Shown piece by piece: positions 8,720 through 49,147 of a DNA stretch of 64,000 nt. Under the pieces are notes generated by a model. It saw only the letters and a list, made by a program, of their open reading frames with translations, ran no database searches and was not told the DNA's origin. Origin of the DNA: Candidatus Parcubacteria bacterium (GTDB lineage Bacteria; Patescibacteriota; Minisyncoccia; Phycocordibacterales; CAIJYI01); contig JAPLYL010000002.1 in the NCBI GenBank assembly GCA_026395595.1, positions 122,111-186,110 of the forward strand. Reading direction: 5' to 3'. Positions within the stretch are counted from its first letter, which is position 1; each line of letters starts with the position of its first letter. The position numbers were made by a program, and so were the translations under genes.

Positions 8720-9358
8720 TCAGTTCTTCTTCTCCCTATACCCCAACGCTTCAGCAAGATGTTTTTCCTGAATATCTTCACTTCCCGCAAGGTCGGCGAT
8801 GGTTCGTGCGAGTTTGATGATACGGTGATAAGCACGCGGTGAAAGCGATATTCTGGTCGCGGCGGAATTGAGGAGATTTTTCTCTTTTTCGCCAAGTGGT
8901 GCAAATTTTTCCAAATCTTTTGCGCTCATTTCGGAGTTGGTATTTATCTTTTTGTCGGCAAACCTTTTTTCTTGAATTTCTCTTGCTTTTAGTACTCTGT
9001 CGCGAATATCTTTAGAGGTTTCCATTCCTTCCGGCACTTTGTCAGAGAGTTTTTTGTAGTCGATTTCGGCGACTGGTAGGAAAATATCTATTCGATCCAT
9101 AATCGGACCAGAAAGTTTACGTTCATATTTGTAAATATCTCCTGCCGAACAAACGCACTCTTTTTTAGTACCTTTAAACCCGCACGGACACGGATTCATC
9201 GCGGCAACCAAAATGAAATTCGCTGGAAAAACTTCCGTCCCCTTCGCTCTTGAAATGCTCACAAATTTTTCTTCCAGCGGTTCGCGCAAGCTCTCTAAAA
9301 CTCGTTTTTCAAACTCAGGGAATTCGTCTAAGGTATATGTCCTACAAAAAACATTCAT
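8720..9358 (-). pseudogene. 3' fragment (C-terminal ~205 aa) of a comM/yifB paralogue
   Basis: The translation is ~90% identical to residues ~130-338 of the 9869..10885 ORF (DEFPEFEKRVLESLREPLEEKFVSISRAKGTEV...LAEALGYREKKN); nucleotide identity is ~85%; it has no N-terminal ATPase part. Confidence 0.7.
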
Positions 9359-9868: not shown

Positions 9869-11444
9869 TCAGTTCTTCTTCTCCCTATACCCCAACGCTT
9901 CGGCGAGATGTTTATCTTGTATGTTTTCACTTCCTGCCAAGTCGGCGATGGTTCGCGCAAGTTTTATAATCCGATGATACGCGCGCGGTGAAAGACCCAT
10001 GCGGGTTGCGGCGGAATTGAGGAGGTTTTTTTCTTTTTCTCCGAGCGGAGCGAATTTTTCCAAGTCTTTCGCGCTCATTTCGGAATTGGTATTTATACGT
10101 TTGCCTTCAAATCGTTTCGTTTGTGTTTCGCGAGCTTTTAAAACACGGTCGCGAATATTTTTTGAAGTATCGGTTCCCTCCGGCGCTTTGTCGGAAAGTT
10201 TTTTGTAATCAATTTCGGCGACGGGCAAAAAGATATCAATGCGATCCATAATTGGGCCGGAAAGTTTGCGTTCATATTTGTATATGTCGCCGGCCGAGCA
10301 GACGCACTCCTTTTTAGTACCCTTAAATCCGCACGGACAGGGATTCATCGCGGCGACCAAGATGAAATTCGCCGGAAACACTTCTGTCCCCTTCGCGCGA
10401 CTGATTGAAACAAATTTTTCTTCAAGCGGTTCTCGCAAGCTTTCCAAAACTCGTTTTTCAAATTCGGGAAACTCATCTAAAAACAAGACTCCGCGATGTG
10501 CGAGGGTTACTTCGCCCGGTTTTGGAAAAGCTCCGCCTCCGATCAGTGAAACATATGAAGAAGTATGATGCGGAGCGCGAAATGGGGCGGTGGTGACAAG
10601 CGGTTCTTTAAGTGTGCCGGAAATAGAGTGAATCCCCGTTATCTCCAGAGCTTCTTCAAAAGAAAGTTCTGGCAGTAATTGCGAAAAAGCGCGCGCCAGC
10701 ATAGTTTTCCCTGTACCGGGCGGGCCGAACATAAGAACATTATGCTTTCCTGTTGCGGCGATTTCCAAACCTCGTTTTGCGGTTTCTTGCCCCCCGTACG
10801 TCTTCAAAGCCGTATTCACGCAGTGTTTCTCTTTTTTCAACTCTTCCCGGAACATGAGGCGGAATAGCCTTCGAAGCTGTTTCATCTTCAGATGTCATAG
10901 TATTCAGGTGTCTAATGACCTGTAAAAGCGTTTTACATCCAAAAACCGTAATACCCTCAATGATTGAGGCTTCATCTGCATTCTCATATGGCAGAAAAAC
11001 TTCGGTAAAACCTTTTTCTTTTGCTTTTTGAACCAGAGGAAGCGCCCCTTTAATAGGACGCAGTTCCCCGTTTAATCCGAGTTCTCCCAAGAAAAGTTTT
11101 TCTTTGGTATCAAACTTTATTTCTCCGCCGGCTAACAAGTATGTTAATGCGCACGCGAGATCAAAAAGAGTCCCCTCTTTTTTTATATTTGCCGGAGTGA
11201 GAGAAATTATTATTTTCTGATTTTTTGCTTTCGGTGATTTATACCCGGAATTCTTTATTGCTGCGGAAATGCGGTCTTTTGATTCATCAACGGATTTGTC
11301 GGGAAGTCCTACGACGGAAAAAGAGGCCATTCCTTTAGAAATATCCACTTCCACACAGACAATATGAGCGCGCAGTCCGACAGATTGAGCGCTATAACTT
11401 TTTGCGAAACCCATGATACATAAGAAATAAGCAAAAAGAAACAA
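9869..11444 (-). CDS. comM: Mg-chelatase-like AAA+ ATPase ComM/YifB, interrupted by a 1-nt frameshift in a G6/C6 tract (~10791-10796)
   Basis: The 10740..11444 ORF gives the Lon-like N-terminal domain; the 9869..10885 ORF gives Walker A GPPGTGKT and the C-terminal Mg-chelatase domain; the frames join as ...GFEDVRG|QETAKRGLEIAATG, the expected YifB junction. Confidence 0.8.
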
Positions 11445-19708: not shown

Positions 19709-19956
19709 ATTAAAGGACTTGCGTATAAAGGACAAGGAAGTATAATAATAATCAGATAGTGATTCAATAAATAGATAACCAAGGGAACTTATTTGTTCTA
19801 CCGCCTCAACAAAGGCAACCATCTATAAAAACATTATCATAGTCAGTCACATTTGTTCTTTCCTAGGTCACAAAAAATAGAATATACCCCAAGGGCCGCA
19901 CATGCGGCCCTTTATTTATTATTGGTGCTAACCGAGCGGTCTTTTTCGCGACCTTT

Positions 19957-20029
19957 GCTTTATTTTTTAAAAATTATCGTGGAGCAGTACTATTTGTACA
20001 GCTCCGCGATAATTTTTAAAAAATAAAGC
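19957..20029. repeat. 29-bp inverted repeat (1 mismatch) with a 15-bp spacer
   Basis: GCTTTATTTTTTAAAAATTATCGTGGAGC ... GCTCCGCGATAATTTTTAAAAAATAAAGC. Confidence 0.6.
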
Positions 20030-20127
20030 AAATTCTTGCCCTGCCGTAGCTTTAGCGAAGGAGGGTCATCGAAAAATCCTCGCTCTTTGTTTTGTTGTGT
20101 TTACAGGTGATTCTGAACCATAAGCCT

Positions 20128-20267
20128 CTGAATCCAAAAACTCCTTTTTCCCATCCAAATAACCCCTCCCGTCATGCCGGGCTTGACCCGGCATCCACGT
20201 AGTTAAGCGGTATTTCATAGATCCCGGGTCAAGACCGGGATGACGACTGAGAGTTTTTGGATTCAAG
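20128..20267. mobile_element. MITE/REPIN-like element, copy 1 (terminal inverted repeat TGAATCCAAAAACTC plus two inverted core hairpin units)
   Basis: Left end CTGAATCCAAAAACTCC; core units CGTCATGCCGGGCTTGACCCGGCATCCACG and ATCCCGGGTCAAGACCGGGATGACGA; right end GAGTTTTTGGATTCAAG; the ORF track's 20066..20266 ORF lying over it is spurious. Confidence 0.6.
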
Positions 20268-20351
20268 GATAAGCTTTTTTGACTTAAGGCACAATATCAA
20301 TTACTATCTATGTTGGAAACACTGTATTTTTACTGCAAAAAGGAGTAGATT

Positions 20352-21192: not shown

Positions 21193-21262
21193 AGTAATAA
21201 TGTATTATATAATAATATGATACTATCATATTTCATTTTTTTGTTACCGTCAAGTCATAAGA

Positions 21263-21513
21263 CTGTGAATCCAAAAACTCTTCGTTCGTCATCCTCGCGA
21301 ATGCGGGGATCCACGTCGTTAAGTCATACTCTGGAGCACCACAAGAGTATTTCCATTTTTATAGTCGCTTCGCTCCTTATACTACAAGAGTATTTCCATT
21401 TTTATAGTCGCTTCGCTCCTTAAAAATTAGGTCAAAATTAGGTCGCCCCGTATTCGCGAGGATGACGATTTTGGGATATTTTAGTCCAAGGAAACGAGTT
21501 TTTGGATTCACAG
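21263..21513. mobile_element. MITE/REPIN-like element, copy 2 (with an internal 2 x 39-bp tandem repeat)
   Basis: Ends are CTGTGAATCCAAAAACTC / GAGTTTTTGGATTCACAG; cores CGTCATCCTCGCGAATGCGGGGATCCACG and its inverted partner; the direct repeat ACAAGAGTATTTCCATTTTTATAGTCGCTTCGCTCCTTA occurs twice (21332-21413). Confidence 0.6.
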
Positions 21514-21531: not shown

Positions 21532-23223
21532 TTATTTAACCCCGTGTTTCTTGCGTATTTCAGTAAGTTCTTGTTCCTCAGCCTCAGCTTTTGCCTCTTT
21601 CCCTTCTTCTCCAAGTTTTTTAAGCTCTGATTCCGGAAGTTTTATAAGTTCTTGAGTGCGTTTCTCAAGATATTCTGCTGTGTTGAGGTTTGGATCTTCT
21701 AAAACCTCCTCCAGGAGCGCGTGCAGGATAAGTCCAAGTTTTGGTCCGGGTGTTTCATGTGTAACCTCCATTATTCTCGTACCATCAATTTTGAGCATTC
21801 CGACGGAAACAGGTGCACGCATCGCTTCTTCTATCATCGCCTCGTATTTTCGTAAACGATAGGGTTTTTCAACCGGTCTTCCCATTCCAATACGGTCACA
21901 TGCCCTTATTTTCATAAGATCCCACACATTTTCCGGTCCGACATTCGCAACAATCCTTCTTACTGCTGAAAGCGTTATCTTTTCCACATCTGAGAAGAAA
22001 AGATGATATTTTACCAGAGATGAAACCGTATCGGAAAGTTTCACGGGAAACCTTAATCGTTCCATTATCTTCTTTGAAACCCTTCCACCAACGACGTCAT
22101 GCCCGTAAAACGTCCAATTGTCCTTCTCTTTAGACCATCGGCGTGTTTCCGGCTTGGAAATATCGTGCAGCAAAGAGCCTAAACGGATATGAAGAGGCCA
22201 ATTATGCCTCGCCGCATTATCAAGAGCGCGAAGGTTATGTTCCCAGACCGTATAGATATGACTCCCGTTTTGTTCCACACCAATCCCCTTTTCCAGTTCC
22301 GGGACGATAAATCGCAATAAACCAAGCTCATGAGTCAAAACGATACCGCTCATAGTATTCTCCGACATAACTATTTTTACAAATTCATCACGAATTCTTT
22401 CACATGAAACATGTTTCAGATTGTCGGAAAGCTGTTTTATGGCATCTTCCGTCTCTTTTTCTATAGTGAAACCCAGTTGGGTAGCAAAACGAACAGCGCG
22501 CAGTAAACGAAGAGCGTCTTCATTGAAACGGTCTTCCGGTTTCCCTATTGCCCTGACGATTTTGTCCTTTATATCAGATTGTCCTTTATAAAGGTCAACA
22601 ATAATACCCTCTTTTGGGTTGTATGCGAGTGCATTTATCGTAAAATCACGGCGTTTCAGGTCGTCTTCCAGTTTTTTACTGAAAATCACCGCATTCGGAT
22701 GCCTTTTGTCGCTATATTCCGATTCCATTCGGTAAGGCGTAACCTCTATAATAGTTGTTGTTTCATGTGTAACAGGGTTTTCCTCATTTTTTAATGTTTC
22801 ACATGTAACTATTTGATTGACCGCTCGCGCGGCTCGCTGTGGCGTAGGAGTCAGTCTGGGGACTGACGGATGAAAACCTACGGTTTTCATACTTTCCCTT
22901 GTTTCACATGTAACATTTTCGTCACCACCATCTGATGTTTCATGTGTAACGGTCGGTCGGACGTGGTCTCTGACCCCGTCCGGAACATTTGTATTTACCA
23001 CAACCCCCACGGTTCCAAAGGTATTTTCATAGAAGGTTTTCTCAAAAAGCCCGATTATTTCTTCCGGTACGGCATTAGTGGTAACATCCCAATCTTTCGG
23101 TTCCCTTCCCAAAATAAGATCTCTTACACAGCCACCAACCAAATAAGCTTCAAAACCGGCGTCTTGAAGGGTTTCTGTTACACGTGTAACATATAATGGA
23201 ATATGGCTCTGTAAGTCTTTCAT
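21532..23223 (-). CDS. cca: CCA-adding tRNA nucleotidyltransferase (class II, with HD domain) carrying an ~85-aa in-frame insertion
   Basis: LVGGCVRD, RRDFTINA, ERxxxE and a C-terminal HD motif (LLHDISK); the insertion falls between the FGTVGVV and IEVTPYRMESEY blocks. Confidence 0.8.
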   Translation of the reverse strand: MKDLQSHIPLYVTRVTETLQDAGFEAYLVGGCVRDLILGREPKDWDVTTNAVPEEIIGLFEKTFYENTFGTVGVVVNTNVPDGVRDHVRPTVTHETSDGGDENVTCETRESMKTVGFHPSVPRLTPTPQRAARAVNQIVTCETLKNEENPVTHETTTIIEVTPYRMESEYSDKRHPNAVIFSKKLEDDLKRRDFTINALAYNPKEGIIVDLYKGQSDIKDKIVRAIGKPEDRFNEDALRLLRAVRFATQLGFTIEKETEDAIKQLSDNLKHVSCERIRDEFVKIVMSENTMSGIVLTHELGLLRFIVPELEKGIGVEQNGSHIYTVWEHNLRALDNAARHNWPLHIRLGSLLHDISKPETRRWSKEKDNWTFYGHDVVGGRVSKKIMERLRFPVKLSDTVSSLVKYHLFFSDVEKITLSAVRRIVANVGPENVWDLMKIRACDRIGMGRPVEKPYRLRKYEAMIEEAMRAPVSVGMLKIDGTRIMEVTHETPGPKLGLILHALLEEVLEDPNLNTAEYLEKRTQELIKLPESELKKLGEEGKEAKAEAEEQELTEIRKKHGVK

Positions 23224-33012: not shown

Positions 33013-33094
33013 GAAGCATGGGCCCGGGTGGCGAAATTGGTAGACGCGTACGCTTCAGGTGCGTATGTCGCAAGACATGGAGGTTCAAGTCCTC
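33013..33094 (+). tRNA. tRNA-Leu (anticodon CAG), class II
   Basis: Acceptor GCCCGGG/CCCGGGC, anticodon loop TTCAGGT, long variable arm TGTCGCAAGACAT, T-loop TTCAAGT. Confidence 0.85.
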
Positions 33095-33101
33095 TCCCGG
33101 G

Positions 33102-33429
33102 CACAAAAAATCATCCGCTTCTGCGGATTTTTTGTGCCCGGGAAGGGAGTGCCCTGCGGCACTCGCGGGAGGATTTGAAGATGTTGAACTTGTCGCAACG
33201 AGTCGAGGCCGGTGAGGAATGGGCTGGGCCCCGTTCCGCAAGACCTTTTGAGAATTTTTGTGAGCGGTGAGCGCGACCTAAATTTTTACGACCATGGGGG
33301 AGATAAAAATGGAAGTACTCTTGCGGTGAAACAAAAAGTCCAAAAGGTGTACTGCGCCAGTAGGGCGAAGTGAGACGTGAAACATGTACCGTTCCTGTAA
33401 GGAAAAAGTCCTCTCCCGGGCACAAAAAA
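33102..33429. repeat. GC-rich ~300-bp non-coding insert bounded by 23-nt direct repeats of the tRNA-Leu 3' end
   Basis: AGTCCTCTCCCGGGCACAAAAAA at 33079-33101 and again at 33407-33429, each followed by a terminator hairpin; the insert begins with GCCCGGG, the tRNA 5' acceptor sequence. Confidence 0.5.
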
Positions 33430-33511
33430 GACCAACAAAAGGTCTTTTTTATTTGTATTTATTGATGATCTGTCAAGGTAACCCTCTCTCTGTTTTTCGG
33501 TTATACTATTT

Positions 33512-34990: not shown

Positions 34991-35124
34991 AGTTATTATT
35001 CTTTTACTTTTAATGACGTCTACTTGATACATTACGATATCAGTATCAAATTGATCGACTAAATGTTCTTGCATTCATTATATATTATAGGGTTTTTTAT
35101 GCAATAGAGCCGTAGAATGGTAAT

Positions 35125-35248
35125 AATTTTCAATTTACAATTTTTAATTTTCAATCAATTTTCAAATGTGACAAACGTCTGTGTTTGAAAATTTTTTCAT
35201 TGAAACATTGTAAATTCATTGAAAATTAAAAATTGTAAATTGAAAATT
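35125..35248. repeat. large AT-rich palindrome (31-bp perfect arms, ~62-bp spacer)
   Basis: AATTTTCAATTTACAATTTTTAATTTTCAAT at 35125-35155 and its reverse complement at 35218-35248. Confidence 0.6.
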
Positions 35249-35315
35249 TTTTTAAAAAAACAACCCTTCCTTTTCAAGAAAGAGCTGTTTTTTTTGGCTA
35301 GTTTTAAAGGTTTTT

Positions 35316-36839: not shown

Positions 36840-37106
36840 TTTGGGTGTTTCGCTGTACGCAAAAACCCCTACCAGTTAGGCGTTTCCCTAAAAAATATAG
36901 ATAAAGATAGATATTTTCGTGTTTGAGAGCGCATAATCAAGATAATTTGGGTTTTCTTTAAACGAAACCGGAACCATCATCCTTTGACAACGGTATTTAA
37001 CTCATAACGATACCCGTAATAATAGCAGAAGAGGGTCAAAAAGTCCACCGCCGATAGACGGAGAATAAAGCAACAAGAAAAAAGAAAAAAGGGAACGGCC
37101 GACTGC

Positions 37107-37222
37107 CGGGCTGGGGTTGTACCCCAGCCCGAAACGTTTGAATGACATAGTAAAGTTTGTTTAAAAAAAGAACCTCGTCTGGTCACACAAACGTTCCGGA
37201 ATGGGGTACAACCCCGTTCCGG
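37107..37222. repeat. two inverted copies of a GC-rich hairpin motif (GGGGTTGTACCCCA core) in the rny-clpP intergenic region
   Basis: GGGCTGGGGTTGTACCCCAGCCC at 37107-37129 and CCGGAATGGGGTACAACCCCGTTCCGG at 37196-37222, both followed by ...AACGTTTG. Confidence 0.45.
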
Positions 37223-37273
37223 CGGTACGTCGTCGTCCCCTTTTTCTTGTCGCTTTTTGCTTAATTCTTTTTC

Positions 37274-37855
37274 TTACGCTTTCGGTTTCATGACTGCGTC
37301 AACCAATCCATAGTCTTTTGCTTCTTCAGCACTCATATAATAGTCGCGGTCGGAGTCTTTGTTGAGTTGAATAGTCGTCTTTTTGGTGTTTTTGGCGAGG
37401 ATTCTATTCAAATTTTCTTTGGTTTTGAGAATGTGACGGGCGGTGATCTCAATATCAGAAGCTTGCCCTTCTGCTCCCCCCATAACCTGATGGATCATGA
37501 TTTCCGCATTCGGGAGAGCAAAACGCTTGCCTTTGGCACCAGAAGAAAGAAGTACGGCCCCCATGGAAGCGGCAATACCGACACAGATGGTTGCGACATC
37601 GGGTTTGATGTGTTCCATTGTGTCATAAATGGCGAGACCGGCGGTTACGGAACCTCCGGGGCTATTGATGTAGAGGGAAATATCTTTCTTCGGGTCTTCC
37701 GCTTCAAGGAAAAGAAGCTGAGCGATCACGATATTTGCGGTGTAATCATCAATCGGACCCGCGAGGAAGACGATACGCTCGCGAAGAAGCCGAGAGTAGA
37801 TATCATAAGCGCGTTCGCCGAATTGTGATTTTTCAATTACTGTAGGTATGAGCAT
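37274..37855 (-). CDS. clpP: ATP-dependent Clp protease proteolytic subunit
   Basis: [14 protein letters not shown], catalytic Ser (AASMGA) and His (MIHQ) motifs. Confidence 0.9.
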
Positions 37856-37872
37856 AGATTTATTTTTTTTTA

Positions 37873-37948
37873 TTCGTCATTCCCTTGAAAAAGGGAATCC
37901 ATGTTTGGTGATATAACTTTGGATCCCCGTATCCGCGAGGATGACGAA
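37873..37948. repeat. MITE core-only copy (two inverted hairpin units, no outer terminal inverted repeats)
   Basis: TTCGTCATTCCCTTGAAAAAGGGAATCCATG ... GGATCCCCGTATCCGCGAGGATGACGAA. Confidence 0.5.
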
Positions 37949-38053
37949 ATGTTATGAATAACAAAAATAGCATACCATAAGAAAGATTTGTTGACAATAG
38001 CTGTTAAAATAGGTATATTTATGGCAGATACGTTCCATTTGAAAGGAGGATAT

Positions 38054-38239
38054 ATGGTTATCTGGTACGCTTTGTTGGCGCTTGTCTCCGTTGGTTTTTT
38101 GATCGCGGCTTGCATTGTGGAAGCTGAACAAGGGTTTTATCGCGCGATTCCTTTAGGTCTTATCGGTTTCGCCGGAATTATTCATGCCTTCTATTTATAT
38201 AGCATGTATTTGCTTTCCGTTTACATGGCCATAAATTAA
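38054..38239 (+). CDS. small two-TM membrane protein
   Basis: ATG at 38054 preceded by AGGAGGA; 61 aa, hydrophobic. Confidence 0.4.
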   Translation: MVIWYALLALVSVGFLIAACIVEAEQGFYRAIPLGLIGFAGIIHAFYLYSMYLLSVYMAIN

Positions 38240-40879: not shown

Positions 40880-41010
40880 GCCCATAAGCATAGAGGTTTT
40901 TGAAGGAAATGTCAAAAAAAATGACGTGTTTCCATCTTTCTTCCGAGCTTGGGACGACGTTCGGGAAGCGATAATAGAAAAACGGCTCGCGTGAACGCGA
41001 GCCGTTGTAT

Positions 41011-41655
41011 TTATTCAGGAATGTCTTGCGATAATTCCAAAATTCCGGTGTTATCGAAATAAGGGGTCCTGAGCCCTTGTTCCCAACTCCAACCATAGTA
41101 CGCTGCGCGAATCATTTTTCCGATATCGCCGTGGGTAACCATAAGCACGTTTTCGTGCGGGTGACGTGTCTGAATTTCTTTCAATACGATTTTTGCTCGC
41201 GCTAATGTCGCAGGAAAATCCTCGGAGCCTTCCGCATCCAAAAAATAGTCCACTTTTTCGGTCTTTAAAATTTTTGTTGCATATTTTGGAACATCTGAGA
41301 TCGGTTTTCCTGTGAGGATCCCAAAATCTCTCTCAATAAGACCTTGATGGTAATTTACACCGGCAATATGTAAATGTCCGGCGATAATCCAAGCTGTTTG
41401 GTGTGTTCTCGGTAATGGGGAACAGTAAATTACTTTTATTTCACACCCTTCAAGCTTTTTAGCCACTTTCTTCGCTTGTTCTCTTCCAAGTTCTGTTAGT
41501 GATGTGTCGCGATGGCCGTTTAAAATCCCCGCAACGTTGTCGGTATCTTGTCCGTGGCGGACAAGAAAAATTTTACCCGGCGACTGCTTAAAAAGTTTTT
41601 CGAACCACGTTTTGATGACAAATAACCGTTGATTCATATTTTTCCCTCGAGTCAT
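41011..41655 (-). CDS. histidine phosphatase family protein (phosphoglycerate-mutase-like)
   Basis: IFLVRHGQDTDN catalytic RHG motif and the C-terminal HGD block. Confidence 0.7.
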   Translation of the reverse strand: MTRGKNMNQRLFVIKTWFEKLFKQSPGKIFLVRHGQDTDNVAGILNGHRDTSLTELGREQAKKVAKKLEGCEIKVIYCSPLPRTHQTAWIIAGHLHIAGVNYHQGLIERDFGILTGKPISDVPKYATKILKTEKVDYFLDAEGSEDFPATLARAKIVLKEIQTRHPHENVLMVTHGDIGKMIRAAYYGWSWEQGLRTPYFDNTGILELSQDIPE

Positions 41656-41760
41656 TTTTTCCTATATCAGTATATCATAAATTAAAACCTTTGTCAAAAA
41701 AACCTCGGCTACATTCAACCAGTTACTGCAACACTCACACCAGGACATCAAAAAAGGACG

Positions 41761-42008
41761 TTAAAAGATTTACCGAAAGTAAAAATAGGAATAAGTCGGC
41801 AAATAGCGATTCCTAAGAAATTTTATGATGCCATGAAGTTGGAACCCGGGGATTATATGGAAATAGAGTTTTGCGGTGATAAGCTTACCTTGACGCCAAA
41901 AATGTTTATCGAAAAGCGAATCGCGGAGGGTTTGAAAGATAAAAAAGAGGGAAGAATAACCGGACCATTCAGAAATGCGAAGGAGGCGCTTAAGGCACTT
42001 GATTTGTA
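41761..42008 (+). CDS. AbrB/MazE/SpoVT-like swapped-hairpin domain ORF without a canonical start codon
   Basis: Translation reads LKDLPKVKIGISRQIAIPKKFYDAMKLEPGDYMEIEFCGDKLTLTPK...; there is no in-frame ATG/GTG/TTG before the domain, and the first ATG would remove the N-terminal strand. Confidence 0.3.
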
Positions 42009-42043
42009 ACTGCAAACAAAAACATCTCAATGTTGGGATGGTT

Positions 42044-42172
42044 TTTTTATATCTTGAATCCGAGGACTCCATTTCTCTATTCAAAAACCCTATTCGTCAT
42101 CCCGTGTCGCGACACGGGATCCATGTAATGAGTGCTAACGACGTGGATACCGGGTCAAGCCCGGTATGACGA
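42044..42172. repeat. degenerate MITE copy (partial left terminal repeat plus two core hairpin units)
   Basis: CTTGAATCCGAGG...; TCGTCATCCCGTGTCGCGACACGGGATCCATG and CGACGTGGATACCGGGTCAAGCCCGGTATGACGA. Confidence 0.5.
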
Positions 42173-42248
42173 ACCTTACGCGATCCGGCGCCTCGCGAAG
42201 AGATTGCTTAAATCGTTCCGAAAAAGCGGACTGGATCATGTAATCGCT

Positions 42249-45505: not shown

Positions 45506-45720
45506 ACGTTAAATTAAATTTACTATTAGTAATTGAATAATTTTCAAACTATACTATGTTTCAGCGAAAAAAACAAGGAAGAACGCGGTATCTCATCACG
45601 CACTTGTCGCCCGACGGGGTCAGAGACCCGGTCCGGCGTAGGAGATATAAAACGTGCAAACATCCGAGTTTTTGATATTATGATTTTATGCTCTGCTTAT
45701 AAAAGAGGATGGTTAAAGAA

Positions 45721-45860
45721 CTTGAATCCGAAAACCCACTATCGTCATACCGGACTTGATCCGGTATCCACGTCGTTAATGCGCATTACATGGATCCCGT
45801 GTCTCGGCACGGGACGACGAACGGGTTTTTACGCAAAAAAATGGGGTTTTTGGATTCAGG
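45721..45860. mobile_element. MITE/REPIN-like element, copy 3
   Basis: CTTGAATCCGAAAACCCAC ... CGTCATACCGGACTTGATCCGGTATCCACG ... ATCCCGTGTCTCGGCACGGGACGACGA ... GGGGTTTTTGGATTCAGG; the ORF track's 45533..45871 ORF is spurious. Confidence 0.6.
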
Positions 45861-45880
45861 TTAAAGAATAATATACATAT

Positions 45881-46255
45881 ATGAAACAAGAAATAATCAC
45901 ACAACTTCATAAAAATTTTGAGGATTACGCGCAAAAGACCAAAAACGGATTTGAATTTTGGTATGCTCGCGATTTACAGATTTTGCTCGGCTATAATGAA
46001 TGGAGAAATTTTCAAAAAGTCATTGAAAAAGCGAAAATCGCTTGTAAAAATACCGGTTTATCGGTTGATGACCATTTTGTTGACGCCAACAAAATGGTCG
46101 GTGTCGGATCGGGGGCAAAGAGAGAAATAGACGACATTTCTCTCACTCGCCACGCTTGTTACTTCATTGCTCAAAACGGTGACCCGAGAAAAGAAGAAAT
46201 CGCTTTCGCTATGGCATATTTTTCCGTTCAAATGAGAAAACAAGGAAGTCATTGA
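45881..46255 (+). CDS. DinD/Bro-N-like protein, N-terminal fragment (probably truncated)
   Basis: FEFWYARDLQILLGYNEWRNFQKVIEKAKIACKNTGLSVDDHFVDANKMVGVGSGAKREIDDISLTRHACYFIAQNGDPRKEEIAFAMAYF resembles E. coli DinD, but the ORF stops at 124 aa and similarity continues in another frame. Confidence 0.55.
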   Translation: MKQEIITQLHKNFEDYAQKTKNGFEFWYARDLQILLGYNEWRNFQKVIEKAKIACKNTGLSVDDHFVDANKMVGVGSGAKREIDDISLTRHACYFIAQNGDPRKEEIAFAMAYFSVQMRKQGSH

Positions 46256-46416
46256 AAAAAGAATTGCAGAAAGGGTCTATTCTGGCTACAATTTTCGTGT
46301 TTGAGGCACTGGTAGGACGTCCCACATTTAGATTTTAAAGAATTTGCAAAAAATTTGCAAGTTTTTTTCTTTTGTGTATAATAAAGATACTTTAGACATA
46401 AGTTTAAGCAAAATAT

Positions 46417-47670
46417 ATGCAAATTTCACTTATAGAATTTTCAGTAGAAAACTTCAGCGTTTTTAAAGAAAAGGCAACACTTTCTATGGTGGCGCGGAAA
46501 AATGATAACCATACATTTGAATCAAATGGTGAAAACCTACTGAAAACCTCTTTTATTTATGGTCCGAATGCCTCAGGAAAAACCTCTCTTTTGGACGCTT
46601 TTGTGAATTTGAAAACGGGAATTTTGTTTTCTTCCAATATGAAAGAAAATTCAGAGTTGCCCTATAATCCGTTTTTGGCATCGGAAAACACCAAAACAAA
46701 GCCAGTTTGGTTTGAGTTGGTTTTTTCTGCACTTGGGGATCATGCCGGAATATATAGATATTCCTTCTCTTTCTTGCCGGATCATATTGTTACGGAGAAT
46801 TTTACTAAAATATCTATAACTGGGGTAGAGGAACAACTTATTTCGCGAACGGGGCAAGATATAATACTTTCGGGTTGGGGAGATGACGTACAAATTTTGC
46901 GTGACAAAGCGCGTAAGGAAACACTTTTCTTGTCTGTTGCGGCACAATTCAATAATAAACTTGCCCTAAGTTTTGTGGAGGCGTTAAAAAATGTGAATAT
47001 CATTTCAGGCGTTACTTATGCAACCTATCAGCAATTCACTATAAAAAAATTCAAAGATGATCCGCTATACAAAGAAAGTATTTTAAAATACTTAAAAACT
47101 GCCGACTTTTGTATTTCCGGCGGTCGAACAAAAGAAATTGACATTCCATCTTTAGAAAACGTTAAAGATGAGCCAGATATGTTTTCTGCGGTTAAACGAA
47201 TGATAAAACACACCGCTTTGTTTTTCGAGCATCCTGTGTTTGGTAAAAACAACGAACCGGTCGGTGTGTTCGAGCTGTCTCTTGAAGAAGAGTCAACCGG
47301 TACACAAAATTTTCTTTCTATGCTTGGACCAATCATTAACACTCTTGAAACAGGTAAAGTTCTTGCCATAGACGAATTTGATAACAGCTTGCATCCGCTT
47401 TTGACAAAATTTATTGTCGATCTTTTTGAATCATCTGAGACAAATAAACACAACGCTCAACTTGTCGTAACGACACACGACACAAGTTTACTTTCGTATC
47501 GCGATGATTTTATCAAAGATCAATTTTGGTTTACCGATAAAGATGAATTTGGTTCAGCTCGGCTGTTTTCTCTTGCTGAATTTGATATAAGAAATGATAC
47601 TGAATTTGCGAAAAAATATCTGGAAGGTCGATTTGGCGCTCTGCCGTTTATCGGTTCCGTAAAAAAGTAA
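46417..47670 (+). CDS. AAA_21/ABC-type ATPase (OLD / AbiLi / AriA-like)
   Basis: Walker A GPNASGKTS near the N-terminus, Walker B/D-loop LAIDEFDNSLHP, and H-loop VVTTHD. Confidence 0.75.
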   Translation: MQISLIEFSVENFSVFKEKATLSMVARKNDNHTFESNGENLLKTSFIYGPNASGKTSLLDAFVNLKTGILFSSNMKENSELPYNPFLASENTKTKPVWFELVFSALGDHAGIYRYSFSFLPDHIVTENFTKISITGVEEQLISRTGQDIILSGWGDDVQILRDKARKETLFLSVAAQFNNKLALSFVEALKNVNIISGVTYATYQQFTIKKFKDDPLYKESILKYLKTADFCISGGRTKEIDIPSLENVKDEPDMFSAVKRMIKHTALFFEHPVFGKNNEPVGVFELSLEEESTGTQNFLSMLGPIINTLETGKVLAIDEFDNSLHPLLTKFIVDLFESSETNKHNAQLVVTTHDTSLLSYRDDFIKDQFWFTDKDEFGSARLFSLAEFDIRNDTEFAKKYLEGRFGALPFIGSVKK

Positions 47671-47674
47671 AGGA

Positions 47675-48298
47675 ATGTCTGTTTTTCAACGCAAACGCGA
47701 TACCCGTAAGATTCGCAAAGTAATTCGGATATACACGGAAGGTACAAAAACGGAGCCGAATTATTTCGGCTCGATAAAAGATGAATTGCGAATATCTGAA
47801 ATAGATATTCAAATTCAAGGGGTGCGAGGATTTAACAATCATACTTTACCGCTCGTTGGGTCGGTGATTGAAAGAAAAAAAGAGGAAGAAAAAAATAACG
47901 ATTTTGAAACGGAATGGTGGGTTGTTTTTGATAAAGATGATTTTCCTGATTTTAATAGTGCTATTGATTTGGCACAAAAACACGGCATTAACGTTGTCTA
48001 TTCCAACGAGTGTTTTGAATTATGGTTTATTCTCCATTTTGAGTTTTTGCAGACTTCTCTCGGAAGGAATAATTTTGAACCAAAGTTATCAAAGTTGCTC
48101 GGCAGAAAATATGAAAAGAAGAGTTCGGATATTTACGATCTGATAAAAGATAAAGAATCCAACGCGATTCGTTACGCAAAAAAGCTGGAAAAAATGCATG
48201 ATGATGAAAAAGTGAGTTCTCCGGAACAAAGAGTTCCATCAACTTTAGTCTATAAACTGGTCGAAAGATTACGATCACTAAAAACCGAAAGAGAATAG
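47675..48298 (+). CDS. RloB-like (Toprim-like) protein
   Basis: N-terminal IYTEGTKTEPNYF matches the RloB signature (CEGxTExxYF); starts 5 nt after the ATPase stop. Confidence 0.7.
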   Translation: MSVFQRKRDTRKIRKVIRIYTEGTKTEPNYFGSIKDELRISEIDIQIQGVRGFNNHTLPLVGSVIERKKEEEKNNDFETEWWVVFDKDDFPDFNSAIDLAQKHGINVVYSNECFELWFILHFEFLQTSLGRNNFEPKLSKLLGRKYEKKSSDIYDLIKDKESNAIRYAKKLEKMHDDEKVSSPEQRVPSTLVYKLVERLRSLKTERE

Positions 48299-48302
48299 TT
48301 TT

Positions 48303-48887
48303 ATGACCGCCAAAACCACAAATCGCCATATTAAAATTGTTAATAAAGCAAAGCAAAAAATCAAAGAACTTCTTGAAGATCCGAATTGTGTTTGGAGAAC
48401 CATGAGAATACTTAAGGGGCACACAACGGGATTATCCGAACAAGAAATCCTTGATATTTTGTCGAATCTTGGAGCAACGAGTTCTGTCGGAGAAAAAGGT
48501 GAAAAAATATGGAAGTTACATTCCCGTGGCGATAATGATACCCACAAACAAAAAAAGCAATCTCGAAATAAAATTATTTCTCACTCTGACTATTGGAAAA
48601 ATATTTGGTCCCAATGTTCCAAAATTAAATTCAGATACGTTATAATTTCCATGTTGTTAGTTTCTGCATATCTGGGTTACATAAAATTTTCTCCCGAGGT
48701 AAGCACTCCTCTTGGTAAATTTGCATTTAACACAAGCGAATCAAATAAAGTTCTTAGTTCGTCGGTTTTATCTGCTGATATAAACCCAAAAAAATGGACG
48801 TTTCTGTTTTTGGGTTGGTCTCAAGTATTGATTACCGTAAACCCTTATTCAATGTTCAAAAGAAATGGGAAGGATACAAAGGATTAA
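48303..48887 (+). CDS. hypothetical protein, predicted wHTH N-terminus plus one TM
   Basis: Starts 5 nt after the RloB stop; TM segment FRYVIISMLLVSAYLGYIKF. Confidence 0.45.
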   Translation: MTAKTTNRHIKIVNKAKQKIKELLEDPNCVWRTMRILKGHTTGLSEQEILDILSNLGATSSVGEKGEKIWKLHSRGDNDTHKQKKQSRNKIISHSDYWKNIWSQCSKIKFRYVIISMLLVSAYLGYIKFSPEVSTPLGKFAFNTSESNKVLSSSVLSADINPKKWTFLFLGWSQVLITVNPYSMFKRNGKDTKD

Positions 48888-49147
48888 ATACAACAAAAGA
48901 ACAAGCTATACTCTTTAATTCTGGAGATACTGGGTCAGGAAAAATTTGGGCAGATTTGGAAAGTACGCATCTGTATGACGGAAAAAATGTTAAAATCACG
49001 TGCGTTTTTGGAGGAGAATGGGCTCAAAGAATTGAAGTCCTTGGAGAAAAAGAACATGGAACCCGCGAATTAACTTTTTCGGGAATCATTAATGGTGATT
49101 TGTCACAAGGAAATCTCCCCGTGTTAGAAGATTGTAAGTTGTATTAA
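48794..49147 (+). CDS. hypothetical protein (overlaps the previous ORF by 94 nt in the +2 frame)
   Basis: Its ATG follows an A7 run directly; the translation is plausible and beta-rich; the start is uncertain. Confidence 0.35.
   Translation: MDVSVFGLVSSIDYRKPLFNVQKKWEGYKGLNTTKEQAILFNSGDTGSGKIWADLESTHLYDGKNVKITCVFGGEWAQRIEVLGEKEHGTRELTFSGIINGDLSQGNLPVLEDCKLY

Follow-up and report, generated by a model that had tools for sequence, protein, structure and literature searches.

Candidate MITE-like elements of Parcubacteria/Paceibacterota carrying convergent pairs of NTS/SRM hairpins

The hairpin motif closest to the one considered here comes from Neisseria, where roughly every second dRS3 copy belongs to a longer motif of defined orientation named NTS, CGTCATTCCCGCGMAVGCGGGAATCYRG (Chenal et al. 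2025, PMC11893778). NTS-like motifs, called Ssn-related motifs (SRM), are known in many phyla; they follow the layout CGTCAT, palindrome, ATCYRG, with the degenerate pattern HGTCWYN(0-2)YYVSBRHN(0-5)WNVSBRGN(0-2)RNCYNB (PMC11893778). SsnA is a single-domain GIY-YIG protein of 94 amino acids (cd10448); it binds NTS/SRM solely when the DNA is single-stranded, and its cut falls a few nucleotides upstream (PMC11893778). The action of Ssn proteins on hairpins has been shown biochemically for Neisseria and Wolbachia, and mutagenesis has singled out two sets of critical bases: the three nucleotides 5' of the palindrome, required for cleavage, and the C right 3' of it, required for binding (PMC11893778). 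Activity of the Neisseria SsnA is lost when the sequence of the palindrome is altered, even if the hairpin is kept (PMC11893778). The layout NTS-ssnA-NTS was likened by the same authors to an insertion sequence (PMC11893778). A genome with the motif would be expected to have an ssn gene as well, typically with the motif on its flanks.

REPINs/BIMEs and PATEs resemble the elements described below in being inverted hairpin doublets, in their expected recognition as single-stranded DNA, in joint conservation of sequence and structure, and in being non-autonomous. HUH single-strand transposition, used by IS200/IS605 elements and REPINs, makes neither terminal inverted repeats (TIRs) nor target duplications. 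REPINs go with a RAYT gene that has the repeats on its flanks, and PATEs are marked by left and right subterminal hairpins that differ from each other and by insertion 3' of a fixed tetra- or pentanucleotide.

The window, that is, the whole 64-kb stretch of DNA analysed here, contains ten hairpin units arranged in five loci, W1 to W5 (Table 1), every locus consisting of one + and one - unit in convergent orientation. A preliminary description, made from the sequence by itself, had proposed five loci of paired inverted units; all five are present at, or within a few bases of, the positions it gave, the limits have been refined, and the inverted pairing holds at each of them. Its further claims that all copies are intergenic and that some had attracted spurious ORF calls agree with our results. 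No element base falls within a plausible gene, and all five loci are intergenic in a window of which 16.4% is intergenic (chance P about 1e-4); the mechanical ORFs that cross the elements (20066-20266, 21217-21423, 37870-38115, 41770-42084 and 45533-45871) have no Pfam match. W2 follows the stop codon of the gene for CCA-adding enzyme and has parD on its other side. W3 is probably transcribed, because it is situated between the promoter-like site of clpP (37997-37969) and the clpP start codon at 37855. W4 lies at the edge of a strain-specific segment of 1.3 kb (about 40925-42248), which holds an AbrB-like ORF and a histidine phosphatase.

Table 1. Elements, hairpin units and flanking repeats in the window (TIR, terminal inverted repeat)
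Feature	Positions	Strand	Description
W1	20126-20268		complete 143-bp element; TIRs 20126-20144 and 20250-20268
W1 target duplication	20120-20125 and 20269-20274		6 bp, ATAAGC
W1 + unit	20170-20199	+	SRM-like CGTCATGCCGGGCTTGACCCGGCATCCACG, then extension TAGTTAAGCG
W1 - unit	20216-20245	-	SRM-like CGTCATCCCGGTCTTGACCCGGGATCTATG
W2	21263-21513		251 bp; TIRs 21263-21281 and 21495-21513; no target duplication
W2 + unit	21287-21315	+	good unit
W2 - unit	21441-21468	-	degenerate unit
W2 internal foreign segment	21342-21384 and 21385-21427		43 bp in tandem duplicate
W3	37873-37948		bare 76-bp doublet, without TIRs and without clear duplication
W3 + unit	37875-37904	+	CGTCATTCCCTTGAAAAAGGGAATCCATGT
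W3 - unit	37917-37946	-	
W4	42053-42173		doublet; single degenerate TIR at 42053-42071
W4 + unit	42095-42126	+	
W4 - unit	42141-42171	-	
W5	45720-45861		complete 142-bp element; TIRs 45720-45738 and 45843-45861
W5 + unit	45743-45772	+	
W5 - unit	45788-45819	-	CGTCGT variant
W5 target duplication	45714-45719 and 45862-45867		6 bp, TAAAGA

In nine of the ten units, the trinucleotide GTC precedes a stem of 7-9 bp closed by AT; the loop has 4-7 nt, and the stem is followed immediately by a C. The tenth, the - unit of W2, is degenerate. Considered separately, GTC is present in all ten units and the C in nine, so that both features critical for Ssn action occur together in 9/10. A scan of the window with the pattern GTC(A/G)T, AT-closed hairpin, C returned nine units and the degenerate one; a strict scan gives nine, as opposed to a mean of 0.64 and a maximum of 4 in 300 dinucleotide shuffles. 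The family of repeats, made of hairpins paired in inverted orientation and with short flanks that are conserved, is real, as had been supposed. DNA folding of every unit and every whole element is far more stable than that of shuffled sequences (z -2.9 to -4.8, the range extending to -8.8 with whole elements); for the + unit of W1 the predicted hairpin has -11.3 kcal/mol and z -4.8, and the whole W1 element has z -8.8. The differences between stems listed in the preliminary description stand; its list of loops does not, the actual loops being CTTGA, GAAT, GAAA, CGCG and two longer ones. Part of the stem diversity reflects two recurring unit types, because W4 is an inverted copy of W5 (87% identity over 89 nt between W4 and the reverse complement of W5). 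No match of the units to Rfam was found in either gathering or E-value mode.

The layout of these units is that of NTS/SRM: CGTC, an AT-closed GC-rich palindrome, then ATC(C/T)(A/G), with the same critical bases and with orientation set by the flanks. The published degenerate SRM pattern is stricter than the layout and matches two of the ten window units (21287+ and 42095+). In a metagenome-assembled genome (MAG) of the Paceibacterota, a copy of the composite element reads GTCATTCCCGCGCAGGCGGGAATCCA, essentially as in Neisseria: set against the NTS consensus, only 2 of 28 positions are changed. Furthermore, the 24-base core CGTCAT-N-CCGG-N-CTTGA-N-CCGG-N-ATCCA is present in 68 IMG/VR contigs, in which its free positions are almost always complementary to each other; as the GC content of these contigs varies widely, from 0.43 to 0.73, the hairpin unit is not specific to one lineage. 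Judged by layout, critical bases and distribution, the window unit is most probably the cross-phylum NTS/SRM motif, which has been named already, and the claim of an unnamed family is not supported, the motif having been published in 2025 (PMC11893778). Like NTS/SRM in that report, the window units are intergenic, which is nearly always the case there, multicopy and of a cross-phylum type, and they bracket accessory genes, here a ParDE cassette, as NTS/SRM often do. The differences are that all window units belong to convergent doublets, that several stem types occur together in one genome, that the host is a bacterium of the Candidate Phyla Radiation, and that no ssn gene was seen in the window or in the sister contigs.

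Conservation of the pairing was assessed on all sequences that matched the flanks only (CGTCAT ... ATCCA) in the window and 112 further loci, 55 distinct sequences in total with chance matches included; for pair counting, the arms were anchored from outside and the loops were swapped for a fixed spacer. Paired cells amount to 84.8%, compared with 66.6% in shuffles, double-sided changes affect 78 cells where 25.9 are expected, and the covariation score is 0.452 compared with 0.160; not one of 500 shuffles reaches the observed value in any of the three measures. Controls with slid partners gave 20-45% pairing. It is the six inner pairs that vary; the outer two, A-T and T-A, hardly change at all. 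Since pairing, double-sided changes and covariation score all exceed the shuffles, the earlier proposal that the stems stay paired despite change of their sequence, by compensatory substitution, holds.

What sets the window elements further apart from NTS/SRM is the frame in which the doublets are placed. W1, W2 and W5 are each bounded on either side by an outer repeat with the form C-Y-N-TGAATCCAAAAAC-Y-C, as the preliminary description had noted for three copies; W4 retains one degenerate repeat and W3 has none. The ends of the elements, CYNTGAATCCAAAAACYC, form TIRs of about 17 bp, and both TIRs are found in W1, W2, W5 and five MAG copies. With the end of the element placed three bases beyond TGAATCC, four independent insertions lie between direct repeats of 6 bp that match perfectly: W1 (ATAAGC), W5 (TAAAGA), the copy in L109 (TTTTAA) and the copy at the W2 site of sister contig L113 (TCTTTT). 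The L074 copy has a 5/6 match, and inspection of the flanks of W2, L103 and L105 revealed no target duplication. The duplicated targets are AT-rich and intergenic. TIRs of 17 bp, 6-bp target duplications and the insertion polymorphism described below are unreported for NTS/SRM in the available part of the Ssn paper.

Alignment of ten copies gives a shared plan: TIR, spacer, SRM with the extension ATCCACGT-N-GTTAA, inverted SRM, spacer, TIR. The hairpin sequences vary among the ten, with at least five different hairpin pairs in TIR-bounded copies, and the long spacer adjoins one hairpin of the pair in some copies and the other hairpin in others, suggesting that the interior is modular. Further copies, sought beyond the window by a TIR + CGTCAT scan of genome and metagenome collections, were found in five contigs of one Candidatus Paceibacterota MAG (JBAYGK01 = Ga0172379), with a half copy in CALREZ01, and the remaining matches were at chance level; sister contig L113 also carries the element. 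In viral collections, the composite element gave chance matches only.

In many respects the elements correspond to MITEs of DDE insertion sequences, for example the Correia elements of Neisseria: they are 76-250 bp long, have terminal inverted repeats and a short AT-rich target duplication, are intergenic and noncoding, exist in multiple diverged copies, and have empty sites in relatives. Unlike in these MITEs, the interior is a variable pair of SRM hairpins rather than a deleted transposase gene, no parent insertion sequence with these ends was found, and some copies lack TIRs.

Syntenic contigs from sister genomes (Parcubacteria/Paceibacterota) were obtained through homologues of the CCA-adding enzyme and of pyrophosphatase. 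W1 has an orthologous copy in L113, 99% identical, and its site is precisely empty in L114. The W2 site is empty in L114 as well; in L113, from an otherwise near-identical genome, the same site (1830-1995) holds another variant, whose hairpins are those of the W4/W5 type and which has a target duplication of its own, within near-identical flanks. W3 is absent from L116 and L118, and the W5 site is empty in L118, where the same Bro-N/PPase intergenic region is kept. Clean empty sites, which the preliminary description had named as a check, therefore exist for W1, W2, W3 and W5. For W4, the adjoining 1.3-kb segment is missing in L116, as judged by direct sequence comparison, and in L118, as judged by gene spacing only. 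No unit and no TIR was found in L114-L118 (about 96 kb, with L115 and L117 largely duplicating L114 and L116). Because of the clean empty sites and the different variant of L113, comparison of these contigs indicates that the elements are non-autonomous and recently mobile. The L113 variant with its own duplication also suggests that one spot was used repeatedly, the W2 site being an insertion hotspot or a place of serial insertion. A few bases beyond both the W2 copy and the L113 copy at that site stands a further TCYGTGA, partial and TIR-like.

A composite transposon carrying ParDE was considered and rejected: the toxin-antitoxin cassette is present in L114 without W1 or W2, so the ParD/ParE pair between these elements is not their cargo. 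The situation recalls the Neisseria intergenic mosaic elements (NIMEs) and minimal mobile elements, which are variable segments bounded by dRS3/NTS hairpins, located between conserved genes at sites where strains differ in gene content (compare W4, and W1/W2 around the toxin-antitoxin pair). NIMEs, in contrast, are arrays of repeat blocks, and their exchange depends on transformation and on homologous recombination instead of an insertion that duplicates its target.

A partner enzyme was searched for at several levels. Pfam scans of about 60 ORFs of the 64-kb window found no transposase, no HUH-Y1 protein (Y1_Tnp) and no GIY-YIG protein, in agreement with the view that the window copies are non-autonomous. 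In the window and in roughly 108 kb of sister sequence (about 78 kb non-redundant), neither a GIY-YIG gene, sought by a regular expression and by tblastn with three queries, one of them approximate, nor a transposase with the ends of the element was found, and no ssn gene was found near any copy. Scans of genome, metagenome and viral collections for a transposase between the same TIRs returned MITE-sized copies and chance matches only. Two individual candidates were rejected, a DDE_Tnp_1 gene in L118, which has no matching ends, and MCX6737846.1, a GIY-YIG protein from the same submission batch that belongs to another MAG. Among the genomes in which the element is known, a GIY-YIG gene was found only in L105, 1.7 kb from a copy. 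Its product resembles UPF0213 (PDB 1ZG2), and the gene is adjacent to a tRNA gene and not flanked by SRMs; it belongs to a highly conserved family of 79 aa from Patescibacteria that is always located 150-250 nt downstream of a tRNA gene.

Genes of this 79-aa family (loci L105 2545-3031, L124 3800-4240 and L131 3480-3898) are preceded by a conserved leader containing GAAGTGGTG, a complement of the 3' end of the tRNA acceptor (CACCACTTC). That many members come from very short contigs is a hint that the family could be multi-copy or mobile.

We propose, with a probability of roughly 0.6, that these are MITE-like elements of Parcubacteria/Paceibacterota organised around convergent NTS/SRM pairs, which depend on a transposase supplied in trans and serve as sites for an Ssn-type nuclease. 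As the window has no transposase, GIY-YIG or HUH gene, we infer both the mobilising enzyme and the Ssn partner. Complete copies would be inserted by a TIR-recognising transposase making staggered cuts (DDE-type) and encoded elsewhere in the genome. The hairpins would extrude on single-stranded DNA, for example during replication or on incoming DNA, and could then, by analogy with Neisseria and Wolbachia, act as binding and cleavage signals for a single-domain GIY-YIG nuclease of the Ssn type encoded outside the window. Selection for recognition by Ssn would maintain flanks and pairing, and effects on neighbours, such as that of W3 in the 5' UTR of clpP, would be incidental. Such a role would explain why the flanks and the pairing, and not the stem sequence, are conserved across phyla. 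One Ssn enzyme may not serve the five or more stem types present here, since the Neisseria SsnA is inactive on a changed palindrome. Moreover, the TIR route fails to explain every copy, because W3 was inserted and yet has neither TIR nor clear duplication.

This last point is the starting point of the best-surviving alternative, which we consider unlikely: that the SRM doublet is itself mobile, a GIY-YIG counterpart of the REPIN moving through a single-stranded hairpin intermediate with the help of an Ssn-like nuclease and host functions, and that the TIR frame is a separate MITE repeatedly colonised by doublets or recombined with them. The bare 76-bp W3, inserted relative to two sister genomes, speaks in favour of it, as do the diversity of hairpin pairs within TIR-bounded copies, the modular interior, the resemblance of NTS-ssnA-NTS to an insertion sequence mentioned above, and the excess of convergent over divergent SRM pairs in unrelated genomes (38 vs 6). 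Against it, the four perfect 6-bp duplications flank the TIRs and not the doublets, deletion may just as well have trimmed W3 down from a TIR-bearing copy, and the search near the copies yielded no ssn gene. Strand transfer would also have to be performed by a GIY-YIG enzyme, and none is known to catalyse it. If doublets did move by themselves, Ssn nucleases would be their domesticated or parasitic partners, and the lineage would show doublets both bare (W3) and inside a TIR/duplication frame, with rapid turnover at the W2 site; the spread of one hairpin motif across phyla would be explained, and a testable mechanism would be available for NTS expansion.

Attribution of the elements to REPINs mobilised by RAYTs or to IS200/IS605-derived PATEs, in both cases with an HUH-Y1 enzyme recognising single-stranded hairpins, was the interpretation given in the preliminary description, and we now hold it to be very improbable. 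It would account for inverted hairpin pairs with short conserved flanks, for the conserved structure and for intergenic, non-autonomous copies. The documented partner of the motif is a different one, however, as SsnA proteins that bind and cut it belong to the GIY-YIG and not to the HUH enzymes (PMC11893778). Neither TIRs of 17 bp nor 6-bp duplications belong to HUH single-strand transposition, there is no Y1_Tnp match among about 60 window ORFs, and the units lack a 5' tetranucleotide of the GTAG type, their flanks being GTC/C. The PATE hallmarks are missing too: the ends are inverted repeats, and they are flanked by 6-bp direct repeats of varying sequence.

Least probable of all is that we are dealing not with mobile DNA but with common hairpins of a regulatory or terminator kind, or with structures at the RNA level, kept for expressing the genes next to them: the positions of W3 upstream of clpP and of W2 after the CCA-adding enzyme stop codon would suit this, but the units are not terminators, since no T tract follows any of them and none is called terminator-like, while genuine terminators are recognised elsewhere in the window (e.g. 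19891-19912, 40981-41006 and 42023-42040), so that the earlier reservation about bidirectional terminators is removed; sister genomes have the same genes without the elements, the same flanks recur across phyla irrespective of the neighbouring gene, and TIRs and target duplications are present. Integron attC sites were rejected on inspection of the sequence, as there is neither a same-strand array nor R''/R' ends.

Several other features of the window were recorded. Directly after tRNA-Leu(CAG) lies a GC-rich insert of about 320 bp (33105-33430), with the tRNA 3' end repeated directly over 21 nt at its two borders (33090-33110 and 33409-33430) and without an Rfam match; its segment 33275-33323 is 76% complementary to the 43-bp tandem unit inside W2 (21342-21427). 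The insert could represent either a second family of repeats or a small element that has integrated. An AT-rich palindrome with arms of 37 nt, 95% complementary, is located between the ExoIII gene and W1 (19954-20032) and is conserved in L113 and L114. Two further inverted repeats, 35122-35251 (44-nt arms, 93%, AT-rich) and 37095-37233 (52-nt arms, 77%, GC-rich), flank the RNase Y gene in its spacers, the latter between this gene and clpP. A comM/Mg-chelatase-like gene is partly duplicated (8720-9358 and 9869-10885), with 81% identity over 300 nt, further similar blocks and a spacing of 1149 bp; in the stretch compared, L113 and L114 have one such full-length gene. The CCA-adding enzyme (21532-23223, - strand) contains a low-complexity insert with VTHET/VTCET-like repeats after its nucleotidyltransferase head, total length among close relatives being 550-576 aa. 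Finally, a strain-specific, defence-like island with Bro-N and AAA_21 + RloB (45881-49147) separates the pyrophosphatase gene from nusA; L116 lacks this island, and L118 has other genes in its place.

The description of Ssn in 2025 left open how the hairpin sites multiply and whether they are mobile. The elements of this window offer direct sequence evidence that SRM doublets move, and they extend these doublets to the Candidate Phyla Radiation, which is not named in the available part of that paper (PMC11893778). Measured against the same text, the packaging in TIRs and target duplications, the obligatory doublet form, the mobility, demonstrable by comparison of sister contigs, and the occurrence in the Candidate Phyla Radiation appear to be new. 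The elements also explain why small spurious ORFs of one common type turn up in MAGs of this kind, and differences in gene content, at W4 and at the toxin-antitoxin pair between W1 and W2, adjoin them.
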